From assembly GCA_900555125.1 (NCBI GenBank), contig USKH01000001.1:1-34159 (forward strand): a stretch of 34,159 nucleotides of DNA, in the 5' to 3' direction. Position 1 is the first letter of the stretch. Each line of letters starts with the position of its first letter. The notes beneath the pieces were generated by a model. The model worked only from the letters and a program-made list of their open reading frames with translations. It searched no databases and was not told the origin of the DNA. This stretch comes from an uncultured Clostridium sp. Its GTDB lineage: Bacteria > Bacillota > Clostridia > Christensenellales > Pumilibacteraceae. Shown piece by piece: positions 1-29,180 of the stretch. The position numbers were made by a program, and so were the translations under genes.

Positions 1-1254
1 CTCAACATGGACGTCGACGGGTACGGTTCGTTTGAACGCGACGTCAAGATTAAAGACCGCGACTACGCAATCGGAGGAGAAGAAACCTTCAGACAATGGG
101 TTGTGGGCAAGTATAAACAGGGAGATCTTCGTCTCGAACTGAAAGAAGACCGATCCTTCTCTCTGGATAAAATCACGTACGTCGAAGAAGAGCAGGAAAT
201 CGACGTAACCAAGGAAGACGGAACGGTTGTCAAAGAAAAACACGTCGTTAAAAAACAGAAAAAGGAAAACGTCGAAAAAGGAACGTACACCGCGTCCTAT
301 TGCGCAGCCGGGAAAGACGTCGTTATTAACGAAAACATGAACGAGTTGCAGGTTTCCCGCGGCGAAAGCTACAATATAAGACTGTTTACCAACGACGGAG
401 AACTTGCTACTTCTACAAGCTACCGCGTTGCCGGAGCGGGCGAAAAACTGGGCGCAATTCTTGGCGGATACTTCACATGGATAGGTAATCTTTGCCGCGG
501 CGACCTCGGTAACAGCTTCCTGTACGAAAAACCGGTTTCTCAGGTTATAAGCGAAAACATGTGGATTTCGTTTGCAATAGCAATCGTCGCAACCATATTG
601 CAGTTTTTGATAGCAATTCCGCTCGGCGTGTCTTCCGCAACCCATCAGTATTCGGTGCGCGACTACGCCGTCACGGTATTCACCATGATAGGTCTTGCGC
701 TTCCGACGTACTTCTTTGCGGCAATCGCTATAAAAGTATTTGCAGTGGACCTCGGATGGCTGCCTGCAAACGGTCTGGTTGACGCAAACAAGACTTATCT
801 GCCAACATTCGGAGATACGATGGCAAAAATCGGAGATATGGCACTTCACCTCGTTTTGCCGATATTTGTCAGCGTCATTCTCTCTCTGGGCGGACTTATG
901 CGCTATACGCGTACAAATACTCTCGAAGTGCTTAACGCCGACTACATTCGTACGGCACGCGCAAAAGGCCTTTCGGAAAAAACGGTTATTTACAAGCACG
1001 CTTTCCGTAACACTCTTATTCCGCTTGCAACGCTGCTTGCCGGCATTCTGCCGTCGCTTTTCGGCGGTATGATGATTACCGAGCAGGTGTTCGGTATCAA
1101 CGGTATCGGTAACCTGGCGTACAAAGCACTAAAACAAGCAGACATTCCCTTCGTCATGGGATACAACATGTTCCTGGCGATATTGACGGTCACCGGAACG
1201 CTGTTCTCGGATATCATGTATTCGATAGTCGATCCGCGCGTCAAACTCTCCTGA
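1..1254 (+). CDS. oppB: Peptide/nickel-type ABC transporter permease (OppB/DppB family); 5' end cut by the window edge
   Basis: The frame is open from nt 1. The M at nt 7 in the ORF track is probably internal, because the N-terminal TM1 that this family always carries is missing from the window. The C-terminal ~250 aa show the family pattern: loop motif WIGNLCRGDLGNSF, five hydrophobic helices, and EAA-type loop ADYIRTARAKGLSEKTVIYKHAFRN. Stop is TGA at 1252-1254. Opp versus Dpp/App cannot be decided from sequence alone. Confidence 0.85.
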   Translation, partial: LNMDVDGYGSFERDVKIKDRDYAIGGEETFRQWVVGKYKQGDLRLELKEDRSFSLDKITYVEEEQEIDVTKEDGTVVKEKHVVKKQKKENVEKGTYTASYCAAGKDVVINENMNELQVSRGESYNIRLFTNDGELATSTSYRVAGAGEKLGAILGGYFTWIGNLCRGDLGNSFLYEKPVSQVISENMWISFAIAIVATILQFLIAIPLGVSSATHQYSVRDYAVTVFTMIGLALPTYFFAAIAIKVFAVDLGWLPANGLVDANKTYLPTFGDTMAKIGDMALHLVLPIFVSVILSLGGLMRYTRTNTLEVLNADYIRTARAKGLSEKTVIYKHAFRNTLIPLATLLAGILPSLFGGMMITEQVFGINGIGNLAYKALKQADIPFVMGYNMFLAILTVTGTLFSDIMYSIVDPRVKLS

Positions 1255-1269
1255 TAAAGGCGGTGCGAA

Positions 1270-2379
1270 ATGGAAGATAAAAACGAATTGAAAGAAGTCA
1301 TCGTTTCCGAAGACACCGCTATGACGGACGTTATTCACGAAAACGAAAAAACTCAATCGCAGGTCGAGCTTCAGGCTGAAGCCAAAGCGGCGGAAGAAAT
1401 AACTTATAAGGAAATAAGCCCCGCAAGGCTTATTCTGCGCAGATTTTTCCGCTCGAAGCTGTCCATCGTCGGCATAATAATGCTGGTGTTTTTGTTCGCG
1501 TTCTCATTTTTAGGACCGGTTGTCTACAACAAGTGGGAGCCGGATATCCCCGACAGCACGCCCACCATCAACACCTATTATTATACAGTCAAAACGGAGA
1601 TGCCGGACGGTACCACTGTCACCGTTATCGAGCAGCTGCAACAGGAAAGCCCCACCAACGCGTACGCGCCGCTGGACGGCAATCACATTCTCGGTACCGA
1701 CGATAAAGGTATGGACGTGTTCGTGCGTCTTATGTACGGCGGAAGAATTTCGCTTGCGATAGGATTTATAGTCGTAATTCTGCAAACGCTTATCGGCGTG
1801 GTATTGGGCGGTATTGCCGGCTACTACGGAGGCTGGGTAGACCAGATTATAATGCGTATAGTTGATATTTTCAACTGTATTCCCACGCTTCCGATACTGC
1901 TTATTGCCTCCGCGGTCATCGATTCGTGGCAGGTAACCGCCGACCAGCGTATTTATATACTCATGGTAATGATAACTCTGTTCAGCTGGAGCGGCACGGC
2001 TCGACTGGTTCGCGGTCAGATATTGTCGCTGAGAGAACAGGAATACATCACCGCAACCGAGGTTATGGGTTATTCGACGGCAAGAAGAATATTCAAACAC
2101 CTCATTCCCAACGTAATGCCGCAGCTTATTGTTTCCATGACGCTGGGATTGGGCAGCGTAATTCTGTACGAATCCACTTTAAGCTACCTTGGCTTGGGCG
2201 TTCAGCTCCCGAAGGCTGCATGGGGAACCATGATTGCAACGGCAAACGATCCGCAGGTGCTTAATTATCATCTTAATATGTGGTTGCCGGCAGGTCTTAT
2301 GATAGTCGTAGCCGTACTCGGATTCAATTTCGTCGGCGACGGTCTGCGTGACGCAATGGATCCAAAAGCGAGGAAGTAA
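1270..2379 (+). CDS. oppC: Peptide ABC transporter permease (OppC/DppC family)
   Basis: An acidic N-terminal tail is followed by TM1 (IVGIIMLVFLFAFSFLGPVV). Family motif HILGTDDKGMDVFVRLMYGGRISL is present, as is the EAA loop EYITATEVMGYSTARRIFKHLIPN. Purine-rich AAGGCGG lies just upstream of the ATG, 15 nt after the oppB stop. Confidence 0.88.
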   Translation: MEDKNELKEVIVSEDTAMTDVIHENEKTQSQVELQAEAKAAEEITYKEISPARLILRRFFRSKLSIVGIIMLVFLFAFSFLGPVVYNKWEPDIPDSTPTINTYYYTVKTEMPDGTTVTVIEQLQQESPTNAYAPLDGNHILGTDDKGMDVFVRLMYGGRISLAIGFIVVILQTLIGVVLGGIAGYYGGWVDQIIMRIVDIFNCIPTLPILLIASAVIDSWQVTADQRIYILMVMITLFSWSGTARLVRGQILSLREQEYITATEVMGYSTARRIFKHLIPNVMPQLIVSMTLGLGSVILYESTLSYLGLGVQLPKAAWGTMIATANDPQVLNYHLNMWLPAGLMIVVAVLGFNFVGDGLRDAMDPKARK

Positions 2380-2382
2380 GTC

Positions 2383-3543
2383 ATGAAAAAAGAAAGCAAT
2401 TACATTTCCATGAGCGAAAGCCGCAAAATACGGAAGTACAACATCAAGCAGATGCGCTACTACGAAAAGCAGAAACGTCGTAAATGCAGCGAGGATGAAT
2501 ATATCACTACCATGCGCGACGAAAACAACGTAGTGGAAATCGATAATCTCGAAACCTGCTTCTTTACCGACAACGGGACGGTTACTTCGGTTCACGGAGT
2601 GTCGTTCGACATACCCAAAAATAAAATAGTCGGCGTCGTCGGCGAGTCCGGTTGCGGGAAAAGCGTGACTTCGCTGTCCATCATGCAGCTTGTTCAGGCA
2701 CCGCAGGGACAGATAGTGGGCGGATCCATCCGCTTCAACACCGATCAGCTCGGATACGACGAAAACGGCAATAAGCTTGCCTACGATATAGTAAAAATGC
2801 CCACCGCCGCTACCTATAAGGTGCGCGGAAAGGACGTTACCATGATATTCCAGGAACCCATGACCAGCCTTAATCCCGTGTTTACGATAGGGTATCAGCT
2901 GGACGAAGTTTCCTTTTTGCTCGATCCGATGATAGGAAAGGAAGCCGCAAGGGAATATTCGATAAACCTTTTGAGAAAGGTTGGAATTTCCATGCCGGAA
3001 CACACCTACAAGTGTTACCCGCACGAACTTTCCGGCGGCATGCGCCAGCGTGTTATGATAGCAATGGCACTTGCCGGTAAGCCTAAGCTGATAATCGCCG
3101 ACGAGCCCACTACCGCGCTCGACGTTACCATTCAGGCTCAGATTCTCGAGCTTCTCCGCGATTTACAAAAGCGCGAGGGTTGCTCCATTATGCTTATTAC
3201 GCACGACCTCGGCGTTATTGCCGAAATGGCAGACGAGGTTGTCGTTATGTATGCCGGCAGAATTATCGAAAAAGGTACCGTTCAGGAAATATTCCACAAC
3301 CCGATGCATCCGTACACAATCGGATTGCAAAAGAGCAAGCCGCTTGTCACTTCCGACAGCAACGAGCCGCTGTATTCCATTCCCGGACAGGTGCCCAACC
3401 CCATCAATTTGCCCGACCATTGCTATTTCCGCAATCGCTGCGAAAGATGTATAGATAAGTGCAAGGGTAAATACCCCGAGTTTATTAAAGTAAGCGATAC
3501 GCACTACGTATCCTGCTACCTGTACGAAAAGGAGGGCGATTGA
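2383..3543 (+). CDS. oppD: Peptide ABC transporter ATP-binding protein (OppD type) with a basic ~45-aa N-terminal extension
   Basis: Walker [10 protein letters not shown]-loop IFQEP, signature LSGGMRQR, Walker [14 protein letters not shown]-loop ITHDL. The C-terminal oligopeptide-ATPase extension carries a Cys cluster ([15 protein letters not shown]...SCYL). GAGGAAG lies ~10 nt upstream of ATG 2383. The internal Met at 2512 has no RBS. Confidence 0.9.
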
Positions 3544-3544
3544 C

Positions 3545-4726
3545 ATGGACGAAATCAAAAACGAAAGCGTAGAAACCAACGCTTCGGACAAAGAATTTCT
3601 TAAAGTCGAAAACCTGAAAAAGTATTTCGTAATCGAAAAAAGCCTGTTCGGCAAGCCGCTTCGCTATCTCAAAGCAGTGGACGACGTGTCCTTTACGCTT
3701 GAAAGAGGTAAAACCATCGGCGTTGTCGGCGAGTCCGGCTGCGGAAAAACCACGCTGGGAAGAACAATATTAAAACTGTACGAGCCCGACGGCGGCAAAA
3801 TCTTTTTCGAGGGGCAGGAGCTTACGCATCTCAAAAAGAAAAAAATGCGTCGTTTCCGTACCGATATGCAGCTGGTTTTTCAGGATCCGTACTCTTCGTT
3901 GCCGCCCCGTATGACGGTGGGAAGCCTTATCGAAGAAGGCGTGAAAGTGCATAAAGTCGTGCCCAAAGAACAGGTGCACGACTACGTAATGGACATCATG
4001 AAAAAATGCGGCTTGCAGCCTCAGTATTACGACCGTTACCCGCACGAGTTTTCCGGCGGTCAGCGTCAGCGTATCTGCATTGCCCGCGCGCTTGCGGTTA
4101 AACCCAAGCTGGTCATCTGCGACGAACCTGTTTCCGCGCTCGACGTGTCCATTCAGGCGCAGATAATCAATCTTCTCAAAGAACTTCAAAACGATATGGG
4201 ACTGACGTACGTGTTTATTTCGCACGATCTGTCGGTCGTAAAATATGTAACCGATTCGGTACTTGTAATGTATCTCGGCAATATGATGGAAAAGGGAAAC
4301 ACGGACGAAATATTCCGCAATCCGCTTCATCCGTACACCAAGGCGTTGTTCTCGGCGGTGCCCGTCCCCAATCCGGACGTAAAAATGCACCGTATCATTC
4401 TGGAAGGAGATATTCCGTCTCCCGCCAACCCGCCCAGAGGTTGCAAATTTCACACGCGTTGTGCGCAGTGCATGAACGTGTGCAAGTTTGTTCCGCCTCG
4501 TTATGCCGAAGTAAAACCCGAGCATTTTGTCGCATGCCACCTGTATGACGAGGAAATTATGAACAATCTCGCTTCGTACGACGAACAATGGGAACAGATG
4601 GAACGCGATCGCATAGCTGCCGAAGCCGCCGCTGCCGAAAAGAAGTTCAAAAAGAACAGAGACAAACAGGCGGCTCAGGCGGAAGCCGAAAAGAAAGCCG
4701 AACAAAACGACGTCCATGAAGAATAA
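3545..4726 (+). CDS. oppF: Peptide ABC transporter ATP-binding protein (OppF type) with an Ala/Glu/Lys-rich C-terminal tail
   Basis: Walker A GESGCGKTT, signature FSGGQRQR, Walker B LVICDEPVSALD, H-loop ISHDL. C-terminal Cys motif CKFHTRCAQCMNVC...ACHL. AAGGAGGG at 3529-3536 precedes the ATG, which lies 1 nt after the oppD stop. Confidence 0.9.
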   Translation: MDEIKNESVETNASDKEFLKVENLKKYFVIEKSLFGKPLRYLKAVDDVSFTLERGKTIGVVGESGCGKTTLGRTILKLYEPDGGKIFFEGQELTHLKKKKMRRFRTDMQLVFQDPYSSLPPRMTVGSLIEEGVKVHKVVPKEQVHDYVMDIMKKCGLQPQYYDRYPHEFSGGQRQRICIARALAVKPKLVICDEPVSALDVSIQAQIINLLKELQNDMGLTYVFISHDLSVVKYVTDSVLVMYLGNMMEKGNTDEIFRNPLHPYTKALFSAVPVPNPDVKMHRIILEGDIPSPANPPRGCKFHTRCAQCMNVCKFVPPRYAEVKPEHFVACHLYDEEIMNNLASYDEQWEQMERDRIAAEAAAAEKKFKKNRDKQAAQAEAEKKAEQNDVHEE

Positions 4727-4955
4727 GGACGTCAAAAAAAAGAATAAAAGGGCGTTCGTTGACGACGGCCGCACCGTTTACGATATGAGTTGTCTCAATC
4801 CTGACGGAAAAAAAGATAAGGAGCCGATCGGGTTATCCCGCAAGGAAAAACACGCGGCTATAAGGGCGGCACTGTTGGTTTACGGGCGCATTTTTCTTAT
4901 CATTCTGGGGTCGTTTGCCGTTGTCGGAGCTCTTTTATGGCTTTGGCTTAAATAA
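4716..4955 (+). CDS. Small (79 aa) tail-anchored membrane protein, function unknown
   Basis: The ATG overlaps the last 11 nt of oppF, which suggests translational coupling; there is no independent SD. The N-terminal half is Lys-rich and a single C-terminal hydrophobic helix follows (IFLIILGSFAVVGALLWLWL). Codon usage looks like that of the neighbouring genes. No family recognised. Confidence 0.55.
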   Translation: MKNKDVKKKNKRAFVDDGRTVYDMSCLNPDGKKDKEPIGLSRKEKHAAIRAALLVYGRIFLIILGSFAVVGALLWLWLK

Positions 4956-4981
4956 GTTTGCAAAAACAAAAGTTAAATATG

Positions 4982-5011
4982 CGCAAAATGCGGTTTTATT
5001 CCGATTTTGCG
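4982..5011 (+). terminator. Stem-loop after the opp operon (possible terminator or RNA-stability element; no U-tract)
   Basis: CGCAAAAT(g)CGG-ttttatt-CCGATTTTGCG gives 11 bp with one bulge. It lies 27 nt after the small-ORF stop and ahead of the next promoter, but is followed by GAAAAC rather than a T-run. Confidence 0.3.
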
Positions 5012-5043
5012 GAAAACTATACAAAAAGACGGCGTGAAATGAA

Positions 5044-5058
5044 AAGTTTATGAAAATT
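5044..5058 (+). promoter_or_regulatory. CodY-box-like 15-mer
   Basis: AAGTTTATGAAAATT matches the AATTTTCWGAAAATT consensus at 13 of 15 positions. It lies 23 nt upstream of the -35 hexamer. Confidence 0.3.
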
Positions 5059-5080
5059 CCGGCTTTATCTTTTGCGTTGG

Positions 5081-5109
5081 TTGACCGTATGCCTTTTTAT
5101 ATTTATAAT
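5081..5109 (+). promoter_or_regulatory. Sigma-A type promoter of the protease-LRR gene
   Basis: TTGACC (5081-5086), exact 17-nt spacer, TATAAT (5104-5109). The RBS and ATG 5138 lie ~15-30 nt downstream. Confidence 0.7.
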
Positions 5110-5137
5110 AGCGCCATACGGAAAAGGAGTTACATTT

Positions 5138-8100
5138 ATGCGTAAGAAAATTATAGCTATTTTATTATGTGCGGCAATGCTTTCGGGCGTTGCGGCTTGC
5201 GCAGCCGGCAAGAAAGACGGCGGAACGGTTAGTACCGCGTCTACTCAGCTTATGGTTTTGCGCACCGACTACAAATTCTCTCAGGAAGAAGTAGCTTCGC
5301 GTATCAAAGCCGAATACCTTAAGGCGAACAACGGATATAAGGACGGCGACGTAATAGTAGCAATCATTACTCTGCCCGGCAAAAGCCTTGCCGATACCTG
5401 GCTCGAAGGCAGCAAATATTCCACGTTAGCCGAATATGCTCAGTCACCCGAAGGCGTTTATCAGGCGTCCGTAATCAAGAAAAACCAGGACGGACTTATC
5501 GCCGAGCTGACCGAAAAAGGTCTTATTACCGGCGTTAAGTATCGCTACGACACTCTTACAAACGCCGTCGCTGTTACAACCACTTACGGCGGATTTAAAA
5601 AGATAGGAGACAGCGGCAGAGTAGCTTCGACGTACCTCAGCGACACTTACAATCGTCCCAAGTCCGAGAAAGCGGGCGGTGCATCCGGCATCGTCAACCT
5701 CGTCGACGTGTACGAAACCGGTATTTTCAACTCCGGCAGCGTAAGCTATACGGGTAAAGGAACCTCGGTTGCCGTTCTCGACTCCGGTTTCGACCTTTCG
5801 CACCCGGTATTTTCCACCATGCCCGACGTGGAGGACGACAAGCTTACCGTCACCCGCGACAGCGTTTCCGCCGTTCTTTCGGCATCCAATGCCGCAAAAA
5901 CCACCAAAGGGTTGGAAATAAACGACGTTTACGTAAACAACAAAATTCCTTATGTATACGATTACGCAGATAAAGATTACGACGTATTCCCGTACGATTC
6001 CGAGCACGGCACTCACGTTGCCGGTATCATCGGCGGCAAAACGCCCGACAGCGCAAAAACCGAAACCGAACAGGGTATTGTAGGCGTTGCCGTAGACACT
6101 CAGATAGTTTGCATGAAGGTTTTCCCCGACCTTACCGAAGGCGGTAAAACCGAAGACATAATAGCAGCGGTAGAAGACGCAGTTCTTCTCAACGTAGACG
6201 CAATCAACATGTCGCTGGGTTCTTCCTGCGGATTTGCCCGCGAAGAAGACGGCAGCCTTATAAACGCGGTATATGATAAAGTAAACGCTTCCGGCGTAAG
6301 CCTTATAGTTGCCGCAAGCAACAGCTACAGCTCCGCACAGGGCGGCGAACAGGGTAATACCGCGTTTACCACCAACCCCGACTACGGCACCGTAGGCTCG
6401 CCTACAACGTACGCGGCGGCAACTTCGGTTGCGTCCATCAGCGGCGTTAAGAGCAGATATTTCGTTGCAAACGACAAAGACGTCGTATTCTGGACCGAAT
6501 CCAGCTCCACCGCAGCCAAGAAAAACGATTTCTACAAAGAATTGTACGAGGCTATGGGCTGGGACGTCAACGATAAAGAAGAACATACTCTCGAATACGT
6601 CACCGTTCCCGGCGTGGGACTTAAAGTCAACTATTCCAGCATAAATGTAAAGGGCAAAATAGCGCTTGTCCGCCGTGGAGACAGCTCATTCGAAGACAAA
6701 GCTTTGCAGGCAAAAGCAGCCGGAGCGATCGGTTGTGTCATTTACAACAACGTCGAAGGTAACATCAGCATGTCTATGGGTAAAACCGAACACGTGCCCA
6801 CCATTTCCATTTCAAAGGAAGACGGAACCGCGCTCGCAGCATACGCAAGCGGTAAACTTACCTTCTCCGCCGACGACCAGGCAGGTCCGTTCATGTCCGA
6901 CTTCTCCAGCTGGGGACCTTCGCCCAACCTTGAACTCAAACCCGAAATAACCGCTCACGGCGGCGACATCAAGTCGGCTATTCCCGGCGGCGGATACGAT
7001 CAGCTGTCCGGAACCAGCATGGCTTGCCCCAACCTTTGCGGCATCGCCCTGCTTATCCGTCACTACGTAAAAGATAATTTCAAAGACATCGCAGGCAACG
7101 CAAAAGAAGTAAAACTGATGACCAACCGTCTGCTTATGTCCACCGCAACCATCGCTCTCGACCGCTACGGCATAGCTTATTCGCCCAGAAAACAGGGAGC
7201 GGGACTTGCCAGCCTTAAAAAGGTTGTAAGCACCGGCGCATATATCGAAGTTCCCGGTTGCGAGAAAACCAAGCTCGAACTTAAAGACGATCCCACTCGT
7301 ACGGGCGTTTACGAAATGAACTTCAACGTCGTAAACGTATCCGACAAAGATATTCATTACGATCTCAGCGTACTCGGTCTTACCGACGAAATATCTTCTT
7401 CCGACGAACGCTTTGTTTCCGAAAGAGGAAAGTTGCTGTCCGGTTCGATGAAGCTCGAAAGCACAACCGCCGGCGCAGTAAACGGCACTACGCTTACCGC
7501 AAAAGCAGGCGAAACCACTGCCGTTAAACTTACTTACAGTATTTCCGACGCCGACAGAACCTATATTGAAAGATATTTTACCTACGGAACTTACGTCGAA
7601 GGCTTTGTCAAGCTGGAAACAACCGATAAAAATTCGGCAGGCGAAAACGAAGTAAGCCTTAACGTGCCTTTCCTCGCTTTCTACGGCGACTGGACCGAAG
7701 CTCCTATGTTCGATAAGGACTACTACCAGGTGGACAAGGACAAAAACGACGCTTCGCTCGACGAGGACGATAAAGTAAAAGCCGACTATTACGCAACCAC
7801 CCCGTACGGAACTTATTTCTACAACTATATAATTCCGCTCGGCACCTACCTGTATGATATCGATACCGATAAATACGATAAAATAGTGGCTTCGCGCGAT
7901 CATATCGCAATATCCGATTCGTTAGGAACGATAAGCGGATTGTCAACCATTTATGCCGGACTGCTGCGCGGGGCAAAAACCATGGACTTCACCATCGTGG
8001 ATAAAACCACCGGCGAAGTAGTGTGGAGCAAAACCGAAGTCAACGCAAGAAAAGCTTATTCCAACGGCGGCTCGCCCGTTCCGTATTTCAATCAGCTTAA

Positions 8101-11100
8101 ACTCAGCTCCAAGGAATTGGGACTGGTGAACAACCGTACTTATCAGTTCAAGATGGTAGGAAAACTCGATTACGGTGACGGCGGAGTAGCTACCAATGCC
8201 AACAATTCGTTTGAGTACGACTTTGTTCTCGATAACGAAGCACCCATGATTAAGAGCTGCACGTACGAAAAAGTGTACGATAAAGCACTTAAAAAGGATC
8301 GTTATTATATAAACATGGTGGTCTACGACAATCAGTACGTTATGTCCGTATCGCCCGTTTTGTTCACTTCAAACAATTCGTATACCACGCTTACTAAAAA
8401 CGCGATCCCCGTTTATTCGCAGAAGGGAACCGACAATAAAGTAAGAATTGAAATAACCGACTATCTCGAAAACGTCGGATACGACAAACTTCTTTCCGGA
8501 TCGCTTGCGTTCTCCGTAGACGACTATGCGCTTAATTCCAACATTTTCGTCTGCCAGTTGCCCGGAACCGCCGGCGAAATCAAATTCACCAAAGACGGCG
8601 AATGGGACAGCCCCGCGCTCAATATTCTGTCCGTATACGAGGACGAAGTAGTAGATCTCACCGATAAACTTGCTACCGCCGACGAAAACGTGGACGAAAA
8701 CAAGGATTATCTCAGATATCTCAAATGGGAAAGCTCCAATCCCGCAATAGCGGAGGTGAAAGACGGTCTGGTTAAGGGAATAAAACCCGGCAGAGCAACT
8801 ATTACGGCTACCAGAAACGGCGTTGTTTCACAGGAATCTCTCTCTTCGCATCAGGCAATGATAATAATCAACGTCAAGAAGAGAACAACCGCAACGCAAA
8901 GTCTTGCCGCTCAAACCGAAGAAACTGTTGTAAGAAGTAAAGCCCCCGCTTCGGAGGGAGAAGTCACCGTTATGTCCAATAACGGAGTGAACAACGCAAA
9001 CGACGCTTCGGTTAAATCGTTGCGCTTTGCTTATTTCGATACTCTGTTTGCATACAGCAGAGCTGCCGGCACCAGCGAAATAGGAAAAACGGGTGAAAGA
9101 AAATTCATCACCGCTGTTTCCGGGTCGGTTAAAATGTATCCGGGCGAAAGAATTCAGCTTGCCTGCGACATGGATCCGTGGTACGTTGCCGGCAAATATG
9201 AAATGTCGTATCAGACCAGCAACGAAGCTATCGCAAAAGTAAATCAGGACGGTACCGTAACCGCGATGAAGGAAGGCTCGGTAACCATTACCGCTTCGCT
9301 TTCCGGCTCCAACATAAAAGCTCGTTTCAGAATAAACGTTCAGAATCCGTTTATAGTCGAAAACTACGTGCTTGTGTCCTATAAAGGATATGTCGAGAAC
9401 GGAGTAGTCGAAATCCCCGAAGAGGAAGGCGTGCTGTACATCGGAGCGTATGCGTTCTGTCTGTACACCACCGACAACACCATCGAAGTGGACGAGGACG
9501 ACTACGACGCAAACAAAATTCCCGCATCCAACAGCTCCGTTAAAAAGGTAATAGTGCCCGATACGGTGGAAGAAATCAGAAAATATGCATTCTACAATTG
9601 CACCGGACTGGAAGAGGTAGAACTCAAAGGCGAAGTAAAATACCTGCGCGAATATGCCTTCTCCGGCGACGCCAAGCTGAAAAAAATCAACCTCGGAAAT
9701 GTGGAAGTAATAGGTAAAAACGCATTTTACGGATGCACTTCGCTTACTTCTCTCGACCTTAACAAGTGTTATTCCATCGGCGAAGCCGCTTTCCAGGGCT
9801 GCACCGGGCTTACCACCGTCGACCTTTCCAAACTGCGCAATGCGGGCAAGGAAATGTTCAAAAACTGTACAAATCTCAAAAGCGTTGTACTCGGACCGCA
9901 CACCAAGCTGTCATACGGCGCGTTTGTAAAGAGCGGACTTACTTCCGTCGATCTGTATGCAAACGTCGTTCCGCAGTTTGCTTTCGCTCAGTGCAACGAC
10001 CTTAAAAAAGTGGTTATCCACAACGATATGCTGTATATCGATAAGGGAGCGTTCTGCCAGAACCCCAATCTCGAAACGGTTGAACTGCTCGGCAAAATCG
10101 AACTTATCGGCGAACAGGCGTTCTACGATTGTCCCTCGCTTAAGAAAATCAAACTGCCCGGCGGAAAGGTTACCATAGGGCTTAACGCGTTCTACAACTG
10201 CAATAATCTCGAAGAAATAATTATCCCCGCCGATCTCGAAAAGTTATCCTTTGTCGGCAGCGGTTTCCGCGCCACCGGCGTGAAGAAATTCACCGTCGAG
10301 GCGGGAAATAAGAACTTTACCACCAACAACGAAGGCACCATGCTGTATTCGGACGGAGGAAAGAAACTTATAGCAGTTGCTTTCGGGGCAGTAACCGGCG
10401 ACGTCACAATTCCCGCAGAAGTTCAATCTATAGGAGCGGGTGCGTTCGGCGGCACCGCAATCACCTCGGTAACCTTCCTCAATCCCGATATCAAAATCGG
10501 CGACTATGCATTCGCAAACTGCGATTCGCTTGAAAAAGCGACCTTCGCGGCAGGCGGAAAAGCAGTAACCGGTATTCGTTCGTTCTATGCAGACGACAAA
10601 CTCACCGTCGTCGAAAACATGCAGTATATTGCCGAAATAGGCGACTATTCGTTTGCCGCTACCTCGGTTGCCGAAGCCAATATCGGCGACAACGTAATAT
10701 GCGGCGAAGGCGCGTTCTTCAACGGCAAGGTCACCGTCGCAACCGTAGGCGAAAACGTAAAGCTCGGTTTGGGTGCTTTCCAGAACTGCAAAAAGCTTGT
10801 AAAAGTAAATATGCCCGATAAAGGCGGCGTTCACATAGGCAAGTATTGTTTTGCTTATGCCACCGAACTTAAAGAAATCGACCTTAGCAAAACAGACGAC
10901 AGACTGGAAGAAGCGGCATTCTTCAACTGTACCTCTCTTAAAAAGGCAAACCTCGTAAACGTCAAGTATATCGAAGGATATGTGTTTGCCGATTGCGCAA
11001 AGCTGGAAGAAGTACTCGTTCCCGCCGTTGTCGAAATCGGTCAGGGTGCGTTTGCCAAGTACGAACAGGAAAGCGGCGCGGCTCCGAGATTTACCGAAAT

Positions 11101-12805: not shown

Positions 12806-12896
12806 CAAAAAAACAACGTCGCGGCTGTCGCGACAAAAGAAAGCGGAATAAAGAATGTTTCGCATGACATAAAAACCACCGGGTAAGCTTGCTGTG

Positions 12897-12924
12897 TTTG
12901 CAATCGTGCCCGCAGGTTTTATAA
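12897..12924 (+). promoter_or_regulatory. Possible promoter of the 865-aa lipoprotein gene
   Basis: TTGCAA (12897-12902), 16-nt spacer, TATAAG (12919-12924). Weaker than the other promoters in the window. Confidence 0.3.
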
Positions 12925-12989
12925 GAGAGATTTTTTCTCTTGCGGCATACCGCTTGGTCATTATTCAGACAAAACAGGAGGCAGAAAAC

Positions 12990-15587: not shown

Positions 15588-15670
15588 GCAAAAATGGCAT
15601 GAAAGGAGCAAAAAAGCGCGATTTATCTGATAATATTGTGAAAAAAAGCGCGTTTTTTATTCCGACAGAC

Positions 15671-15699
15671 TTGACAAAAGAGTATCTTAAATATATAAT
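15671..15699 (+). promoter_or_regulatory. Consensus sigma-A promoter of the 888-aa/1511-aa lipoprotein operon
   Basis: TTGACA (15671-15676), exact 17-nt spacer, TATAAT (15694-15699). This is a perfect consensus. Confidence 0.8.
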
Positions 15700-15812
15700 G
15701 ATATTATATTTCGCATAGGCGAAACGAACGGCTCGGTGAAAAAATGATGAATATGCATTTGAGCCGTTCTTTGTAAACAAGGCAAAAATTTTTTTAATAT
15801 AAGGAGTTATCA

Positions 15813-18479: not shown

Positions 18480-18540
18480 TAAAAGGTAAATCAATCTATC
18501 GGTAAAAAACAAAGTAAAAACTAAATAAAGCGAGGACGAT

Positions 18541-23076: not shown

Positions 23077-23110
23077 TCGGTTTGTTTGCCTCGGAACTTT
23101 AAAAAAATAA

Positions 23111-23180
23111 TTGACTAAAATAGATTACGATGCTATAATATATTAATTATATGACTCGCCTTTCCGGCTTTTTATATAAT
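23111..23180 (+). promoter_or_regulatory. Tandem promoters of the 1960-aa lipoprotein gene
   Basis: P1: TTGACT (23111-23116), 17-nt spacer, extended -10 TGcTATAAT (23131-23139). Possible P2: ATGACT (23151-23156), 18-nt spacer, TATAAT (23175-23180). Confidence 0.7.
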
Positions 23181-23217
23181 ACGATAAGCAAAAAATTTTA
23201 TGAAGGAGATATAAGAC

Positions 23218-26200
23218 ATGAAAAAAAGCAGATTTTTGATACTTGCTACGTCTGCACTTATGGCATTTGCTGCTTTTGCGTCGGGCTGTAAGGAAGAAAA
23301 CGTCACTTACGGCGATTGGGTAATAACCAATTTCCCGACTGCAACGGCGTCAGGCACGGCAAAGCGAGTTTCTACGGACGGGAAGAAGACCGAAGAAATT
23401 TCTATTCCCTCTGTTTCCGACGCTTCGTTCTGGACGAAAGTTTCGGAAAAAGCTCCCACTCACACGCTTCCCGGCGAAGCTGTTTACGAGTGTGAATACG
23501 GCAAAGCCACGCTTGCCGTAAAACCTCTCGGTCACGACTATGCCGGTGTTGTCGCAACCATTACCGTTATGCCCACCGAACAGAGCGAAGGCAAAGCTGT
23601 TTTCGTCTGCAAGGACGGCGACGGACAGGACGAAGTTGTTCTTCCCGCGCTCGGTGCAAAAGAATATAAGGTAGAAGAAGCCGGTCATACTACGCCCGGC
23701 ACGGCTACGTTTGACTGCGCATTCGGCTCGGTACAAATCGAACTGCCTCCCACCGGTCACACTTTCAAGGGGAACAAATACAATATTACTCTTGCTCCAA
23801 CGCTTACCGAAAAGGGCAAAGGAATGCACCTTTGCGATAAATACAATCACGAAGAAGAGGGAGAAAAGGGATTTGTCGAAGTGGAAATTCCCGCCCTGTC
23901 CGACGGCGAAGTATGGACCGAAAACGTAAAGAAAGCGGTTGCGCCCACTCACACCGAGCAAGGAATGCGGGTGTTCACGTCCGAGACGTACGGAACGGTA
24001 GAACTTGTCGTTCCCGCACTCGGTCACGACTACGAAAATAATCACAAAGTAGAAACGGTAACCATGCCCACTCTCACTAAGCCCGGAAAGGCAATCGAAT
24101 ATTGCGCCGATTACGAAACCGAGGAAGAGGGCAAAAAAGGAACTCGCGAGATAGTAATTCCCGTTCTTACGGATGAAAACGTATGGACTGTGGAAAAAAC
24201 AACTTACCACACCAAAAAGGGTAAGGCGGTGTATACTTCGGTGTACGGTACGGTAGAGTTCGAACTCGAACCCGAAGGTCACGATTATAAAAGAGAACAT
24301 AAAATCGAAATGATTGTTACTCCCACTCTCAACGAGACAGGTACCGCAATCGAATATTGCGCCGATTACGACAGCGAAAATGGCGCGGAAAAGGGTAAGC
24401 GGGAAATAGTCGTTCCCGCGCTTTCCGACAAAAACGTGTGGACGCTTACGGCAATCGCGCCCACTCACACCAGGGACGGCGCATACGTGTACACGTCTGT
24501 TTACGGCGAAGTAAGACAAACGCTGAAAGCCACCGGTCATAACTACATATACGAGCATAAAATAGAAGTGCTTGTTTCGCCCACTCTCACCGAAAGCGGC
24601 ACTGCAATAGAATATTGCGCTTCTTATGACAGTGAGGAAGAAAAAGGCACGCGCGAAATAGTAATTCCCGAACTTTCCAATGCGAGAGTATGGACCAAAA
24701 CCACGCTTGCGCCCGACTATTATCACGGCACCCGCGACGTATATACGTCGATTTACGGCGAAGCGGTTATCGAGCACGACGATCGCATTCTGCTTCCCTA
24801 CGAAAACAAGTACTATAAGAGCGTGATGTTAAACGCTTACGGCGACAGCGCGTTCGGAAGCGAATACGCAAGAGGAGAGGTTGCGTTTGACTCCACATGG
24901 GCAAACAACGCTCCGTTCTATCTGGGCGCGGACGGCACGGGCGTGGGTTCGGCTCATCCTTTCACCGTCGGCACCAAGTACGAGTTCTACGACTACGATA
25001 TGCAGACCGGCAGAGTAACTTTAAAAGTTCTGCCCCAGTCGGCGCGCACGGTTACCGATGAGGACGGCAACGTCACCACCGAACATTATTACGACGAAAG
25101 CAAGGCTACCATCGAATACGCTTACATCGATTTTGAAACCGGCATAATGATAAAGCCCGCATATAAAGACTACAACTATTCGGTAATCGCAACGCCGTAT
25201 GCGGACGCGATAGACGCGGAAAAGAGCGTGGCGTCGGTGTGGAATAAGGCAATAGCGATGTCGCTTTGTTACAACGACGGCACGGAAAAAACGCTTAATG
25301 TGTTTATTCTGAACGGAAAGGTCTATTTCGGAGCGACGTTTACGGACATTAACGGAGAATCAATTGCCGCAAACGCTTGCTATGGAGCGGAAAATCTGTA
25401 TGTTAAGGACAAAAACGGCAATCTTGTCGCTTCGTTTGGATGGAACGGAACCGATATGGTTGAGCTTGACCACCTGGAGGGAGAATACAACGGCGTCGGA
25501 AAAATATTTATAAGCGGAACCGGACTTGTAAAAAAAGACGGAACGATTGTCGCAAAATATACCGTAATCGACCATAATACAATCGGCGTTACCGCAATCG
25601 ACGGCAGCAAGTACGAAGTTTACACTCTCGATGTTGCGGCAAAGACTTACGAGGCAAAATTGCCCACAGTCACCGTCGAATACGACCTCGGCGGAGTTAC
25701 TCTTGCAAACGAGGACGCTTTTGCCGGTCTTACCGTGACGGAGAAGGGCTACAAAAACGCAACCTTCAATCAGAATACCGTGCTGAATACCGTTACTCCT
25801 TCGGCAGAAGGAAAAGTGTTCTTCGGCTGGAAAACGGCGGACGGCAAAACGTTTACAAGCGGTACCGTGGTGTCCGAAAACCTCGTTCTCGTTGCCGACT
25901 GGCGCGATGAGCTGGTGCTTTACTATCTTGACGCGGAAGGAACCAAGCACGAGATAAAAGCGGCGGAAGGAGTAAGAATAGGCGATTATCTGCCCGTTCT
26001 CGACGACAGATTCGATAAAGAAACGCTTAAATATTATCAGTTTGCAGGCTGGAACATCGGAGGAAACGATATTCCGCTTGACACGCCCGTTGCCAAAGGC
26101 GCGGCGGGAAAAACGCTCGAAGCAACCTGGAAAGAGCTAAGCGCATATGACGGAACTTACAACGGCGGCGAGATATGGAACGGCGGCTACGGCAACGGCG

Positions 26201-29100
26201 GCGGCAAAACGATTACCGTTTCCGAAGACGGAACTATAAGCGGAATGAAAACGGGTACTGTCGTGTCCTATGATCCCGTAAGCGGAAAAATCACCTGGAA
26301 AGACAGTAAAAACAAAGAATGTTGTTTCTGGTTTGACATCAAAACGGGCATAATCGCAGGATTATACAACGACAACAAGATAGGCAACGATTATTACCTT
26401 TTCACCTCTTCCGAATATTCTTCCAACGGAAAAGCGGAAGCCGTGTACGGAATTTGGGATCCCGACGCAAAAACATGGGAAGCTCAGTTTGCCCGCGTCA
26501 ACACGAGAAACGGACTTACCGACGTGTTTATTTATAAAAACCATATTTATTCCGACGTTTCTATTACCGACGCGACCGGCAATAAACTGGAAATCGCAGA
26601 CATTAAAAAGTCCAAGACCGTAGTAGTAACCGATCTCGGCAGCGGAGAAGTTCTTATAAGAATAGCCACTACCGCGGAAAACTTCGGTAAAAACAACAAC
26701 TCTTCAAGCAATAAAAAGCTCGATCAATGGGCGGGAACCTATGCGTTCGGCGAAGAAAAAGTCGCTTTGGACGGCACCGGCAATATTGAATGGGGAGAAA
26801 AGAAGGGAACTTACGAAAAAGTCGAAGGACAGGATTACGACTTCGAAGTATACTTCGGCGAAACCGAATATTGGACGCTTACACTGGATGGTAAAAACTG
26901 CGCCATGACCAAACCCATGGCAACGCTGACGTTCGATCTCGGAGGTAAAACCGTTTCCGAAGAGGACGCTGCCAAAGTCACCGGCGGAGAAGTAAACGTG
27001 AAAATAGGCGTTGTTCTTCCCCAACTCGGAAATATAGACGGCTTCGTGTTCCGCGGCTGGTATGCGGATCCGCTGTTTGTGGAAAAAGCAACCGATACGC
27101 TCGTGCCGGAGAAAGACACCGTGTTGTATGCCAAGTGGGTGGAAAAACGCACGCTTACGGTTGTTGTCGACCAAAACAATTCTTATGTTCAGGAATATGC
27201 CGTGGGCGAAAAAACGGTTGTGGAAAACCCCGTTATAAAGGGATTGAAGTTCCTTGGCTGGTACACTACCGCAACGCTTGAAAACGGCACCGAGTGGAAT
27301 GCCGGCAACATGCTTGACGAAAACGTCACCGTATATGCAAAATGGACCGATGCGCCCGCATACAACAATGTATACGTTCCCACCGAACTCAGAAACAGAG
27401 GGAACAATCAAAGCGATCAGTCCAACATTTATACAAGAAACGTCGCCGTTCTCGACGTAAACACCGAAGGCGAAGCGAAATGCACCGCATATCCGTTCAG
27501 AGGAGACGTTACGATCAAAGAAGCGGAAACTTATGCGGATGACGGAGCGGTGGTTATCGCGGTAAACGACGAAGAGCATTACGGTTATGTGGATAAAAAG
27601 ACCGGAATGATCGTTATGACGTTCTATTCGGACGACAAAGCGACGTTGAAGGAAATATTCTTGCTTAATCCGTTTGAAAACAGCAGCCTTAACATATCTT
27701 CGCTGCCGTCGTCTTATTGGTTGGGCGGAGAGGCGAGAGCTATCGAGTATACGTTCGGAGGAAAAACATACACCGTATTTGTCAAGGGCGAAAAAGTTTA
27801 TTTCGACGTTTCCTTCAGAAACGATCAGGGCAAAGCGGTTAAAGCGGACGTAGCGTATAAGTCCGATAGCGTGGTTGTCTGCGCTGCCGACGGCTCGCTT
27901 ATCGCAAAATACGCAAGCGACGGAGAAGAACTGTGCCTTACCGACGGCTTCGAGGGCGAATATAAACTCAACGGAGAAGAAAATCTTTCCTTGACGCTCA
28001 ACGGCGTAAAGAAAATTACTCTTTCCGGAGAGGTCGGAACGTACGAAGTAGTGAACGAAAAAGGTTATAACGTCGAGGCATACATTGCCGGGTCTTACTA
28101 TCGCTTAAACGTAAACAAGACCGCCGCATCCTACACCATGACCAAGCCCATGGCTACCGTTTCCTACAACTTGAACAATGTTGCAATCGAAACTCCGATT
28201 GCCGTTCGCGAAAGCAAGAACTATAACGTTTCGTACAAACTGCCTCAACCCACTTCCCGTTTGTATATTTTCCGGGGCTGGTACGCTCGTAACGACGAAA
28301 GCACTCTCTATCCCGACGAGTACGTTCCGTCCGGCGATATAATGCTTTATGCAAAGTGGGACAAAAAAGTAATTCTCACCGTTGTTTACGGTAACGGACT
28401 GGAAAGCAAACAGTTCGAATACGGCGAAGGAGATACTGCGGCGCCCGAAGAACCCGGATATATCAACGGCAAAGTGTTTAACGGGTGGTTTACCGACGAA
28501 GCTTGCACAAATGCTTACACGCCCGGAAAGATTACCGCAAACACGATAATCTATTGCAAGTGGATAGAAGCCGTTCCTTATTTCGGCGACTACGTGGGCT
28601 ACAACGTCTACGGATCGAGCGGAAACGGCAACGCAAATCTTTCTTCTACGGTTAAGATAAGCGTAGACGCAAAAGGTAAAGCATCGGGCAAATTCAATGC
28701 TCTTATCGTCAAGGACGAAAACGGAAACTACAAACTCGGAACGGGCACGCCTGTTCTGGTTGATGAGAAAAACGGTATAATCGTCACGCCGTACAACATT
28801 AACTATTCTACGATGGGTTCGGACTGGTACGTTTACGTCAAGAACGCCAAGTCGTATACTTTAAATAAGGCTGAAGACTTGTATGTGTGGAACGGCGGCA
28901 GCACCAAATTTATGCGCCTCACCGTAACCAACAACGACAACAGCGTGAAAAACATCAATATCCTTATTCACGACGGAAAGGTTTACGGAAACGTCACCTG
29001 GCAGTGCGAGGGAGTGAACTCAATCGGCAAACTGACCACGTCCGCCATTGCCAAACTGGTTGTGAAAGACAGTAACGGAAAAGTAGTTTTCGGCGCGTAA
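23218..29100 (+). CDS. Lipoprotein (1960 aa): six ~85-aa repeats ending in GH(D/N)Y, then 4 copies of a novel ~250-aa module interleaved with 3 pairs of Listeria-Bacteroides (Flg_new-like) repeats
   Basis: GAAGGAGA at 23202-23209. MKKSRFLILATSALMAFAAFASGC is a signal peptide plus ASGC lipobox. Flg_new-like hallmarks: F(R/L/N)GW(Y/F)....(L/I)YAKW at ~25665-26140, ~26920-27350 and ~28152-28570. Followed by a strong terminator at 29143-29180. Confidence 0.9.
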   Translation: MKKSRFLILATSALMAFAAFASGCKEENVTYGDWVITNFPTATASGTAKRVSTDGKKTEEISIPSVSDASFWTKVSEKAPTHTLPGEAVYECEYGKATLAVKPLGHDYAGVVATITVMPTEQSEGKAVFVCKDGDGQDEVVLPALGAKEYKVEEAGHTTPGTATFDCAFGSVQIELPPTGHTFKGNKYNITLAPTLTEKGKGMHLCDKYNHEEEGEKGFVEVEIPALSDGEVWTENVKKAVAPTHTEQGMRVFTSETYGTVELVVPALGHDYENNHKVETVTMPTLTKPGKAIEYCADYETEEEGKKGTREIVIPVLTDENVWTVEKTTYHTKKGKAVYTSVYGTVEFELEPEGHDYKREHKIEMIVTPTLNETGTAIEYCADYDSENGAEKGKREIVVPALSDKNVWTLTAIAPTHTRDGAYVYTSVYGEVRQTLKATGHNYIYEHKIEVLVSPTLTESGTAIEYCASYDSEEEKGTREIVIPELSNARVWTKTTLAPDYYHGTRDVYTSIYGEAVIEHDDRILLPYENKYYKSVMLNAYGDSAFGSEYARGEVAFDSTWANNAPFYLGADGTGVGSAHPFTVGTKYEFYDYDMQTGRVTLKVLPQSARTVTDEDGNVTTEHYYDESKATIEYAYIDFETGIMIKPAYKDYNYSVIATPYADAIDAEKSVASVWNKAIAMSLCYNDGTEKTLNVFILNGKVYFGATFTDINGESIAANACYGAENLYVKDKNGNLVASFGWNGTDMVELDHLEGEYNGVGKIFISGTGLVKKDGTIVAKYTVIDHNTIGVTAIDGSKYEVYTLDVAAKTYEAKLPTVTVEYDLGGVTLANEDAFAGLTVTEKGYKNATFNQNTVLNTVTPSAEGKVFFGWKTADGKTFTSGTVVSENLVLVADWRDELVLYYLDAEGTKHEIKAAEGVRIGDYLPVLDDRFDKETLKYYQFAGWNIGGNDIPLDTPVAKGAAGKTLEATWKELSAYDGTYNGGEIWNGGYGNGGGKTITVSEDGTISGMKTGTVVSYDPVSGKITWKDSKNKECCFWFDIKTGIIAGLYNDNKIGNDYYLFTSSEYSSNGKAEAVYGIWDPDAKTWEAQFARVNTRNGLTDVFIYKNHIYSDVSITDATGNKLEIADIKKSKTVVVTDLGSGEVLIRIATTAENFGKNNNSSSNKKLDQWAGTYAFGEEKVALDGTGNIEWGEKKGTYEKVEGQDYDFEVYFGETEYWTLTLDGKNCAMTKPMATLTFDLGGKTVSEEDAAKVTGGEVNVKIGVVLPQLGNIDGFVFRGWYADPLFVEKATDTLVPEKDTVLYAKWVEKRTLTVVVDQNNSYVQEYAVGEKTVVENPVIKGLKFLGWYTTATLENGTEWNAGNMLDENVTVYAKWTDAPAYNNVYVPTELRNRGNNQSDQSNIYTRNVAVLDVNTEGEAKCTAYPFRGDVTIKEAETYADDGAVVIAVNDEEHYGYVDKKTGMIVMTFYSDDKATLKEIFLLNPFENSSLNISSLPSSYWLGGEARAIEYTFGGKTYTVFVKGEKVYFDVSFRNDQGKAVKADVAYKSDSVVVCAADGSLIAKYASDGEELCLTDGFEGEYKLNGEENLSLTLNGVKKITLSGEVGTYEVVNEKGYNVEAYIAGSYYRLNVNKTAASYTMTKPMATVSYNLNNVAIETPIAVRESKNYNVSYKLPQPTSRLYIFRGWYARNDESTLYPDEYVPSGDIMLYAKWDKKVILTVVYGNGLESKQFEYGEGDTAAPEEPGYINGKVFNGWFTDEACTNAYTPGKITANTIIYCKWIEAVPYFGDYVGYNVYGSSGNGNANLSSTVKISVDAKGKASGKFNALIVKDENGNYKLGTGTPVLVDEKNGIIVTPYNINYSTMGSDWYVYVKNAKSYTLNKAEDLYVWNGGSTKFMRLTVTNNDNSVKNINILIHDGKVYGNVTWQCEGVNSIGKLTTSAIAKLVVKDSNGKVVFGA
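23317..24783 (+). repeat. Six tandem 75-89-aa coding repeats punctuated by GH(D/T/N)(Y/F)
   Basis: In-frame GGTCA(C/T) (Gly-His) at 23530, 23755, 24022, 24277 and 24535. A near-identical DNA string GCAATCGAATATTGCGCCGATTACGA occurs at ~24091 and ~24346. Confidence 0.85.
24790..29097 (+). repeat. Roughly 1.2-kb coding super-repeat, four copies (last one truncated)
   Basis: The anchor motif (T/N)G(I/M)I(V/I/A) occurs at 25138, 26341, 27598 and 28768. A second anchor, (G)K(V/I)Y..V(S/T)(F/I/W), occurs at 25315, 26537, 27787 and 28971. Spacings are 1170-1257 nt. Confidence 0.7.
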
Positions 29101-29142: not shown

Positions 29143-29180
29143 AAAAAATCCCCTTTCGTTCGCGAAAAGGGGATTTTTGT
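29143..29180. terminator. Bidirectional intrinsic terminator between the 1960-aa gene and tetR
   Basis: AAAAAATCCCCTTTCG-ttcg-CGAAAAGGGGATTTTT. A GC-rich stem (ATCCCC/GGGGAT plus extensions, one bulged A) is flanked by an A-run on the left and a T-run on the right, so it can work for both convergent genes. Confidence 0.8.

Follow-up and report, generated by a model that had tools for sequence, protein, structure and literature searches.

A giant cell-envelope subtilase genetically linked to an Opp-type peptide importer in uncultured gut Clostridia: a candidate locus for protein utilisation

In a 34,159-nt stretch of contig USKH01000001.1 from an uncultured Clostridium sp. (hereafter the window), genes for an Opp-type peptide ATP-binding cassette (ABC) importer are followed on the same strand by five very large genes, here called A to E, the first of which encodes an S8 subtilase. 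Does this arrangement reflect a unit that degrades proteins at the cell surface and imports the products, or are the importer and the surface proteins neighbours by chance? The first-pass annotation of this DNA proposed a physically linked unit for capture, degradation and import, and its measurements held on recalculation: oppF ends at 4726, A starts at 5138, 411 nt lie between them, and the five products are 2555, 865, 888, 1511 and 1960 aa long (7779 aa across 23,963 nt, all on one strand). The 411-nt gap is not empty, however, but holds a conserved ORF (open reading frame) for a 79-aa membrane protein. We consider it probable, at roughly 60%, that the locus is a surface proteolysis and peptide import unit that brings the logic of the PrtP/Opp pathway of lactic acid bacteria (LAB) into one locus, with clade-specific binding lipoproteins added. 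Its carriers are uncultured gut Clostridia, Christensenellales-like, and their closest named relative is Candidatus Neoclostridium. Coordinates of all features of the window are collected in Table 1.

A check proposed beforehand, whether the order opp-S8-lipoprotein recurs in relatives, was clearly positive. Scanning one genome per species from the S8 side, we found 21 loci of the same subfamily (33-57% identity over ~850 aa), to which two loci from an assembly index were added. An orthologous giant substrate-binding protein (SBP) gene followed by oppB, oppC and so on lies within 10 kb in 15 of the 17 S8 loci with enough flank, which come from Christensenellaceae, Faecousia, Borkfalkia, Pumilibacteraceae and others, compared with a match to SBP, oppB or oppC at only 1 of 59 distant S8 loci of the same scan, taken as a control. 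The shorter S8 genes of P0008 and of the cultured Anaeromicropila herbilytica (the latter 34% identical, 1294 aa) are not opp-linked. From the SBP side, a metagenome scan returned 80 loci, reduced to 40 lineages by dereplication at 90% nucleotide identity, with 15 of the 40 on contigs too short to judge. The S8 gene is present in 22 of the 25 informative lineages, right after oppF in 18 and ahead of the SBP and its partner gene (see below) in four; the other three have no S8 gene within 7-10 kb. Two gene orders recur: SBP-oppBCDF-S8, for instance in the window and in L004, L005 and L019, and S8-(~440-aa protein)-SBP-oppBCDF, for instance in metagenome-assembled genomes (MAGs) of Faecousia, Borkfalkia, Christensenella and Pumilibacteraceae. 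Homologs that were scattered in relatives and never opp-linked would have spoken against a unit; the neighbourhoods contradict this, and physical linkage is therefore well supported.

The same data bear on coincidental adjacency, in which a housekeeping opp operon merely sits beside a cluster of surface-protein genes. In its favour, a promoter-like site precedes gene A, and the small ORF ends 182 nt of untranslated sequence ahead of A. Across 21 lineage representatives, however, the core of partner, SBP, oppB, oppC, oppD and oppF is invariant and the outer genes differ in nearly every lineage, so that the adjacency is not residual synteny; nor are these near-identical strains, since SBP identity among loci is 38%-68%. 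The linkage is reciprocal while its flanks vary, the blocks stay side by side even in a permuted order, and gene fusions occur; together these make chance neighbourhood very improbable.

What, then, belongs to the unit? The first-pass annotation had drawn it as opp plus five lipoproteins; of this the S8-opp linkage stands, but the core also includes two genes upstream of the window, and B to E are confined to one clade. The conserved core consists of the S8 protease, a partner lipoprotein of ~400 aa, a giant family-5 SBP and OppBCDF. We could reconstruct the upstream genes from two loci of the window's own species (L119 and L120; OppB-F, small ORF and A 98-100% identical). In L119 the full oppB (8815-10272, 485 aa, 99% identical to the window copy) is directly preceded by a gene for an 884-aa SBP_bac_5 protein (6036-8690), just outside the window, and by one for a 416-aa partner lipoprotein with a Flg_new repeat. 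The full order in this species is thus partner (~416 aa)-SBP (884 aa)-OppBCDF-79-aa membrane protein-A-B-C-D-E. The transporter has the features expected of an Opp system, with two BPD_transp_1 permeases (one with OppC_N), two ATPases with an oligo_HPY C-terminal region and, via L119, a family-5 substrate-binding lipoprotein that is a putative peptide binder. OppB is itself enlarged here, at 485 aa compared with 335 aa in most orthologs, through a ~150-aa insertion in the first extracytoplasmic loop; versions of 445-553 aa occur in some other lineages. Upstream of the partner, L119:5-3805 encodes at least 1266 aa with CarboxypepD_reg-like domains; its product may be one more large surface protein, bordering the locus.

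The SBP of this system measures 855-952 aa across loci (e.g. L004:2757-5402, L119:6036-8690) and aligns with OppA structures at both ends only, implying an insertion of ~300 aa, which falls between the parts that align to OppA residues ~100 and ~200. The partner family adjoins the SBP in both gene orders. In three loci (L009, L011, L015) the partner domain (C-terminal ~450 aa) is fused to the S8 protein in ORFs of 2940-3001 aa, through a linker of transmembrane (TM) helix, basic loop and second TM helix that would leave the two ectodomains extracellular. Such a fusion, a Rosetta-stone case, suggests that the two proteins act jointly at the membrane. The product of the 79-aa ORF starts with a basic stretch and has a TM helix at its C-terminal end; the ORF has no Pfam or NCBIfam match and is conserved in place (tblastn, 45% identity in L005 and 32% in L004); between oppF and S8, a 79-aa ORF is called in L173 and a 101-aa ORF in L171. 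Its product may be an accessory transporter subunit. Upstream of S8, Faecousia-type loci carry genes for large secreted AhpC/TSA-thioredoxin-like proteins (745-1000 aa), a Fer4 plus redoxin membrane protein and a ~255-aa protein (L007:4014-9120 and L009:7296-9540, with equivalents in L008, L010, L011, L012 and L015), which may form an extracytoplasmic disulfide-reducing module that helps to unfold protein substrates.

Protein A carries the complete S8 triad that had been read from its sequence: D215, H290, N395 and S627 lie within the canonical motifs VLDSGFD, HGTHVAG, AASNS and SGTSMACP, and these triad and oxyanion residues are invariant in an alignment of 28 homologs. The protease-associated (PA) insert is likewise recovered by Pfam. 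The proposed fibronectin type III (Fn3)-like domain of fn3_5 type fares less simply, as Pfam fn3_5 does not reach E<=0.01 in A; the assignment rests on the alignment to C5a peptidase and on fn3_5 matches recorded for close homologs. Residues 202-885 align with 7edd, a structure of C5a peptidase (E 4e-66); matches to SpyCEP (~1e-61) and to cell-envelope proteinase A (6e-61) follow closely. The nearest NCBIfam model, NF040553 (SGO_0316/0317 LPXTG peptidases), is reached at 226 bits against a cut-off of 1400; A is thus, as judged from its sequence, a cell-envelope proteinase (CEP) homolog outside every curated subfamily. Its pro-region (aa ~23-205) looks I9-type, Inhibitor_I9 being recorded for some homologs; the middle region is 25-58% identical among relatives, and tandem LRR_5 repeats identify the leucine-rich repeat (LRR) region that follows as BspA-type. 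Its nearest database matches, at 55-59% identity, are proteins of MAGs that bear the labels Clostridia, Christensenellales or Oscillospiraceae. Neither the window nor the related loci encode a rotamase or PrsA domain that would indicate a PrtM/PrsA-type maturase.

These affinities also suit a different role, the main rival, in which the locus is a host-interaction or adhesion island: A would cleave complement, chemokines, IgA, mucus proteins or other host factors, the LRR arm and B to E would be adhesins, and Opp would salvage peptides or be secondary. By structure as well as sequence, A is closest to C5a peptidase and SpyCEP, the NCBIfam model for the LRR adhesin HupY/LrrG matches its LRR region, the BspA LRR, Big_2, Big_3 and Flg_new modules are typical of adhesins, and all carriers are of gut origin (human, goat, sheep, giraffe and chicken samples). 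With import merely incidental, as such an island would have it, there would be little reason for a dedicated, structurally unusual Opp operon (giant SBP and partner) to accompany the protease in ~90% of informative lineages, whichever the gene order, and even to be fused to it. We regard this role as unlikely to be the primary one, noting that host interaction and nutrition are compatible with each other.

How are these proteins held at the cell surface? All five products begin, as annotated, with a signal peptide and a lipobox Cys, read from the sequence as a basic n-region, a hydrophobic stretch and the motifs VAAC21 (A), FFAC23 (B), VVAC24 (C), LAGC22 (D) and ASGC24 (E); the Cys, a predicted acylation site, shows little or no variation across the B and D families. 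Also as annotated, no SLH, LysM, CWB2 or LPXTG anchor is present in A to E, and hydropathy indicates no C-terminal anchor in B, C, D or E. Lipid anchoring of A is only part of the picture: the lipobox is there, but A also ends in a hydrophobic helix, in the order Pro/Asp/Lys-rich linker, KSKTG, helix, KRKNNIG (CKSKTGYDAAG-hydrophobic-KRKNNIG). In most S8 orthologs the signal peptide is of the ordinary kind and the C-terminus is formed by a TM helix, often with a long charged tail, and the N-terminal lipobox on the S8 protein is confined to the window's clade; the description of the locus as built from lipoproteins therefore fits this clade but not the family at large. It follows that the TM helix would be the general anchor of this S8 family, with the predicted lipid anchor of A located on its I9-like pro-region. 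The C-terminus of A (aa ~2505-2555, nt 12650-12805) lacks an LPXTG sortase signal; KSKTG, TM helix and short basic tail together resemble a degenerate sorting signal, with IPNTG in L004 and PPETG in L019 at the equivalent place. Clostridial sortase motifs of SPKTG type offer a comparison. The KSKTG-like motif is not conserved, other S8 orthologs lacking it and many having long tails.

The position of B to E relative to this unit was examined in eight loci centred on D (at 88, 58, 36, 35 and 28% identity) or on B (at 40, 39 and 35%). The order A-B-C-D-E is kept in all eight, with an S8 gene of 2550-2720 aa followed by B-like, C-like and D genes in every such neighbourhood, and with an E-like gene after D in all six loci where E is in range. 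Upstream of S8, oppF and the small ORF are present in L171 and L173; the right flank is variable. In the most divergent lineage (L172) no opp genes precede the S8 gene. In its relative L089, however, the 3' end of the D gene is 84% nucleotide-identical to the start of L157 and L158, which run on through D, an E-like gene (1977 aa), partner, SBP and oppBCDF. Joining L155-158 with L089 gives for this lineage the permuted order S8-x-B-C-D-E-partner-SBP-oppBCDF, and explains one of the three SBP-side exceptions without a nearby S8 gene. That the two blocks adjoin in either order suggests that B to E travel with the protease-importer unit in this clade.

The content of B to E is harder to read. That most of their residues belong to no named domain, as first supposed, was borne out by Pfam, NCBIfam and PDB profile searches: Pfam gives no significant match in B, NCBIfam none in B, C or D, and profile searches of all four against PDB sequences recover Ig and Flg_new matches only. 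B and C are paralogous by hhalign (probability 100, E 3.8e-42, 740 columns). B begins with two Fn3-like domains and one immunoglobulin (Ig)-like domain, and C has Ig-like domains at its N-terminus (Pfam); an exact look-up of C in the assembly index gave no match. An AlphaFold2 (AF2) model of B from a 25-sequence alignment has a pLDDT of 85.9, but Foldseek with the full-length model returned mostly generic tandem Ig/Fn3 arrays (TM-score ~0.1), together with the SGBP-B lipoprotein of a B. ovatus polysaccharide utilisation locus (PUL), matched via its Ig-stalk architecture. As Ig/Fn3 matches swamped this search, the C-terminal 590 aa were re-predicted separately (pLDDT 83.3). The resulting beta-rich model matches LolA, LprG, LppX and RseB with Foldseek probability 1.0, target TM-scores of 0.41-0.49 and E 6e-5 to 1e-3. 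It is a moderate fold match at 8-13% identity, with no sequence similarity, and no sequence-level PDB match is found for this region of B or C. The fold group of LolA, LolB, LprG, LppX and RseB is marked by an unclosed antiparallel beta-barrel with a helical plug and by binding of a hydrophobic ligand. We tentatively read the C-terminal region of B as tandem unclosed half-barrels of this LolA/LprG-like kind, and extend this to C by paralogy; the B/C modules would differ from that group in being tandem, set on an Ig/Fn3 stalk and part of a monoderm surface lipoprotein.

D consists of about eight Big_3-like repeats of ~80 aa in its N-terminal ~670 aa and a C-terminal ~840 aa without family match. 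E has four or more Flg_new (Listeria-Bacteroides) repeats, with large stretches otherwise unmatched, and about five Cys/His-containing repeats of ~85 aa (motifs GH[DN]Y, PTLTExG..IEYC and PTHT..G..VYTS.YG) that correspond to no Pfam, NCBIfam or PDB family. Apart from their Ig and Flg_new repeats, D and E match no known family. In a database of 5.8 billion proteins clustered at 90%, D has 36 homologs and B has 25; a profile search with B of 1.84 billion representatives gave ~60 full-length B-type clusters, the rest being Ig-domain-only. The clusters 98-99% identical to B and D comprise 291 and 234 sequences, respectively.

We can now set out the proposed mechanism. It builds on direct observations, namely the genes present, the intactness of the catalytic residues, the signals for anchoring, the fold predicted for B and the reciprocal gene linkage. 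A would be an active subtilase of the CEP/C5a-peptidase type, held at the membrane by its C-terminal TM helix and, in this clade, by a lipid at the N-terminus of its I9-like pro-region as well. Protein substrates would be bound by the LRR and Ig regions of A and cut by it to oligopeptides near the cell surface; the enlarged OppA-like lipoprotein, probably with the partner lipoprotein, would capture these peptides for OppBCDF to bring into the cell. The clade-specific accessory lipoproteins B to E would most plausibly serve as substrate- or host-binding arms, B and C with LolA-like half-barrels on Ig/Fn3 stalks, D with Big_3-like repeats and E with Flg_new repeats; this is the weakest step of the proposal. 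It is tempting to go further, and to suggest that giant subtilase, partner and enlarged OppA form a physical complex that passes peptides to Opp, within a 'protein utilisation locus' widespread among gut Clostridia (Christensenellales, Oscillospirales) for which B to E, as new lipoprotein families, are the capture arms of the Neoclostridium-like clade, a counterpart for protein of the glycan-binding surface proteins of PULs. We hold this extended version to be possible but doubtful.

Several observations weigh against a nutritional unit. C5a peptidase and SpyCEP, the nearest structural relatives of A, are virulence proteases that cleave host factors and have no nutritional role, and BspA-type LRRs are classically adhesins. 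The LolA/LprG-like fold is best known as a binder of lipids or acyl chains, not of proteins, so that, judged by predicted fold, B and C might just as well have a lipid ligand. The Faecousia and Borkfalkia versions of the locus lack B to E, which are thus not needed for its core function; they are accessory, not core. Neither a cytoplasmic peptidase gene nor a dedicated regulator gene is found in the locus. Because A, C and E each have a promoter-like site, the locus need not form one operon with opp, and co-regulation with the importer may be doubted. A CodY-box-like sequence lies before A, but it is weak statistically, and no such box was found upstream of the SBP gene in L119. Finally, a search for a cultured carrier of the locus found none.

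A third role for a linked protease and importer is in processing or signalling, the S8 protease maturing secreted peptides or neighbouring surface proteins and Opp importing the resulting signal. Extracellular S8 proteases and Opp do cooperate in Gram-positive peptide signalling: in Bacillus, subtilisin, Epr and Vpr process Phr peptides, which Opp then imports. In the window's clade, moreover, B to E, as possible targets, always directly follow the protease gene. The locus, however, holds no pro-peptide gene and no gene for an RNPP-type or other cytoplasmic receptor; its sole small ORF lacks a signal peptide and ends in a TM helix; the protease bears ~1600 aa of binding modules, beyond the apparent need of peptide maturation; and the core occurs without B to E in many lineages. 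A signalling role is accordingly improbable. A lantibiotic-type protease plus ABC unit was also considered and rejected, the importer being SBP-dependent with oligo_HPY ATPases and lanthipeptide genes being absent.

The established way in which LAB obtain peptides from external protein combines a CEP with Opp. The locus resembles that route in its S8 subtilase with PA insert and Fn3-like domains, its family-5 SBP lipoprotein and its OppBCDF. In SK11, prtP/prtM and opp lie on different plasmids (PMC2827410), and LAB PrtP is LPXTG-anchored, PrtM-dependent and encoded apart from opp (PMC2827410; PMC7783315). Here, by contrast, protease, giant SBP (~870 aa) and partner lipoprotein are genetically coupled, and the protease is ~2500 aa long, has BspA LRRs and predicted TM and/or lipid anchors in place of a sortase signal, and has no PrtM neighbour. 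Streptococcal ScpA/ScpB and SpyCEP align with A over ~680 residues of catalytic domain, PA insert and Fn3 (E 4e-66 to 1e-55), but they are virulence factors of 1000-1650 aa that carry an LPXTG anchor and act on a narrow set of host substrates, and their genes do not adjoin opp.

A parallel to Bacteroidota PULs had also been suggested. Like PULs and their Gram-positive counterparts (gpPULs; PMC5320581), the locus combines a surface-tethered multimodular hydrolase, binding lipoproteins and a dedicated transporter; unlike them, it has a presumed protein substrate and an Opp-type ABC importer, with no SusC/SusD, carbohydrate-active enzyme (CAZyme) or regulator gene. No product is a SusC-like TonB-dependent transporter or belongs to a SusD-like pair, which sets the locus apart from Bacteroidota PULs, and the gpPUL definition of CAZyme, transporter and regulator (PMC5320581) does not describe a block whose enzyme is a peptidase and which has no CAZyme or regulator. 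By analogy, the locus may work in a PUL-like manner without being a PUL member.

Our literature searches, which did not cover all journals, found nothing relevant on a conserved CEP-Opp gene cluster or a Firmicutes 'protein/peptide utilisation locus'. The mechanism class is established, but the locus itself looks previously undescribed; the conserved locus, the giant TM/lipid-anchored LRR-subtilase, the giant SBP with its partner, the S8-partner fusions and the B/C, D and E families all appear to be new. The fusions in particular suggest physical coupling of protease and importer, for which we found no description in Opp systems in the literature searched. Colonic protein fermentation affects host health, and the genes with which abundant uncultured Clostridia attack intact protein are largely unknown, the unlinked dairy PrtP/Opp pathway being the only well-worked Gram-positive model. 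A conserved locus would provide a metagenome marker of proteolytic capacity, a set of co-inherited parts (giant subtilase, partner lipoprotein and enlarged OppA) to test together, and a defined genomic context for three uncharacterised lipoprotein families (B/C, D and E).

Table 1. Genes, domains and candidate signals of the window (positions in nt)
Feature	Position	Strand	Basis or remark
oppB-like permease gene	1-1254	+	BPD_transp_1 E 1.3e-33; 5' end cut by window start
oppC-like permease gene	1270-2379	+	BPD_transp_1 and OppC_N (Pfam)
oppD-like ATPase gene	2383-3543	+	ABC_tran and oligo_HPY (Pfam)
oppF-like ATPase gene	3545-4726	+	ABC_tran and oligo_HPY (Pfam)
79-aa ORF	4716-4955	+	Overlaps oppF stop codon; conserved position in relatives
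CodY-box-like sequence, AAGTTTATGAAAATT	5044-5058	+	2 mismatches; ~25 nt upstream of the promoter-like -35 of A
Promoter-like site before A, TTGACC-17-TATAAT	5081-5109	+	11/12 consensus match
Gene A, giant cell-envelope subtilase, 2555 aa	5138-12805	+	Pfam, PDB matches, homolog alignment
A, signal peptide and lipobox (Cys21)	5138-5200	+	Sequence, hydropathy
A, S8 catalytic domain, aa 206-689	5753-7204	+	Pfam Peptidase_S8, PDB alignment
A, catalytic D215	5780-5782	+	Motif reading
A, catalytic H290	6005-6007	+	Motif reading
A, oxyanion N395	6320-6322	+	Motif reading
A, PA insert, aa 494-566	6617-6835	+	Inside S8 domain 206-689 (Pfam)
A, catalytic S627	7016-7018	+	Motif reading
A, Fn3-like region (C5a-peptidase homology to aa 885), then subfamily-conserved middle	7205-9499	+	Big_2, HL_N-beta-like domains
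A, BspA-type LRR region, LRR_5 x 8 stretches	9515-11473	+	Pfam E 7.5e-130; PDB 4fs7, 4gt6, 4h09, 6mlx
A, C-terminal hydrophobic anchor, aa 2529-2550 (22 residues)	12722-12787	+	Hydropathy; recurs in orthologs
Gene B, lipoprotein, 865 aa	12990-15587	+	Lipobox, AF2 model, Foldseek
B, Fn3-like and Ig-like domains, aa ~30-275	13077-13814	+	
B, beta-rich C-terminal region, aa 276-865	13815-15584	+	Putative tandem half-barrels (AF2 model)
Promoter-like site before C, perfect sigma-70-like consensus	15671-15699	+	12/12
Gene C, lipoprotein, 888 aa, paralog of B	15813-18479	+	hhalign, Pfam
Gene D, lipoprotein, 1511 aa	18541-23076	+	Lipobox, Pfam Big_3
Promoter-like site before E, TTGACT-17-TGnTATAAT	23111-23139	+	11/12, with TG
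Gene E, lipoprotein, 1960 aa	23218-29100	+	Lipobox, Pfam Flg_new
E, ~85-aa repeats, aa 105-525	23530-24792	+	
E, Flg_new repeat (example)	28156-28356	+	
Strong bidirectional intrinsic-terminator hairpin	29143-29188	.	Between E and convergent TetR gene; closes block

The candidate regulatory signals can be described briefly. The CodY-box-like site before A is the window's only match of this kind, against 0.19 expected, but one also turns up in 18 of 100 shuffles; it is not statistically significant and serves as a lead only. A weak hairpin with a T-run follows B and precedes the promoter-like site of C, and the hairpin after E is the only strong terminator of the block. In relatives the genes are packed tighter, with A and B overlapping in L088 and L090.

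GC content is flat across the window (0.45-0.50), so its base composition carries no island signature, and Rfam and tRNA scans of the window gave no matches. Past the terminator lie unrelated genes, encoding TetR, a Gate-domain protein and one unknown product on the minus strand, followed by metG and tatD. A 905-aa antisense ORF (minus strand, 10244-12961) runs opposite the LRR and C-terminal parts of A, and further long antisense ORFs lie opposite B to E; these are most likely artefacts of stop-poor repeat coding sequence.

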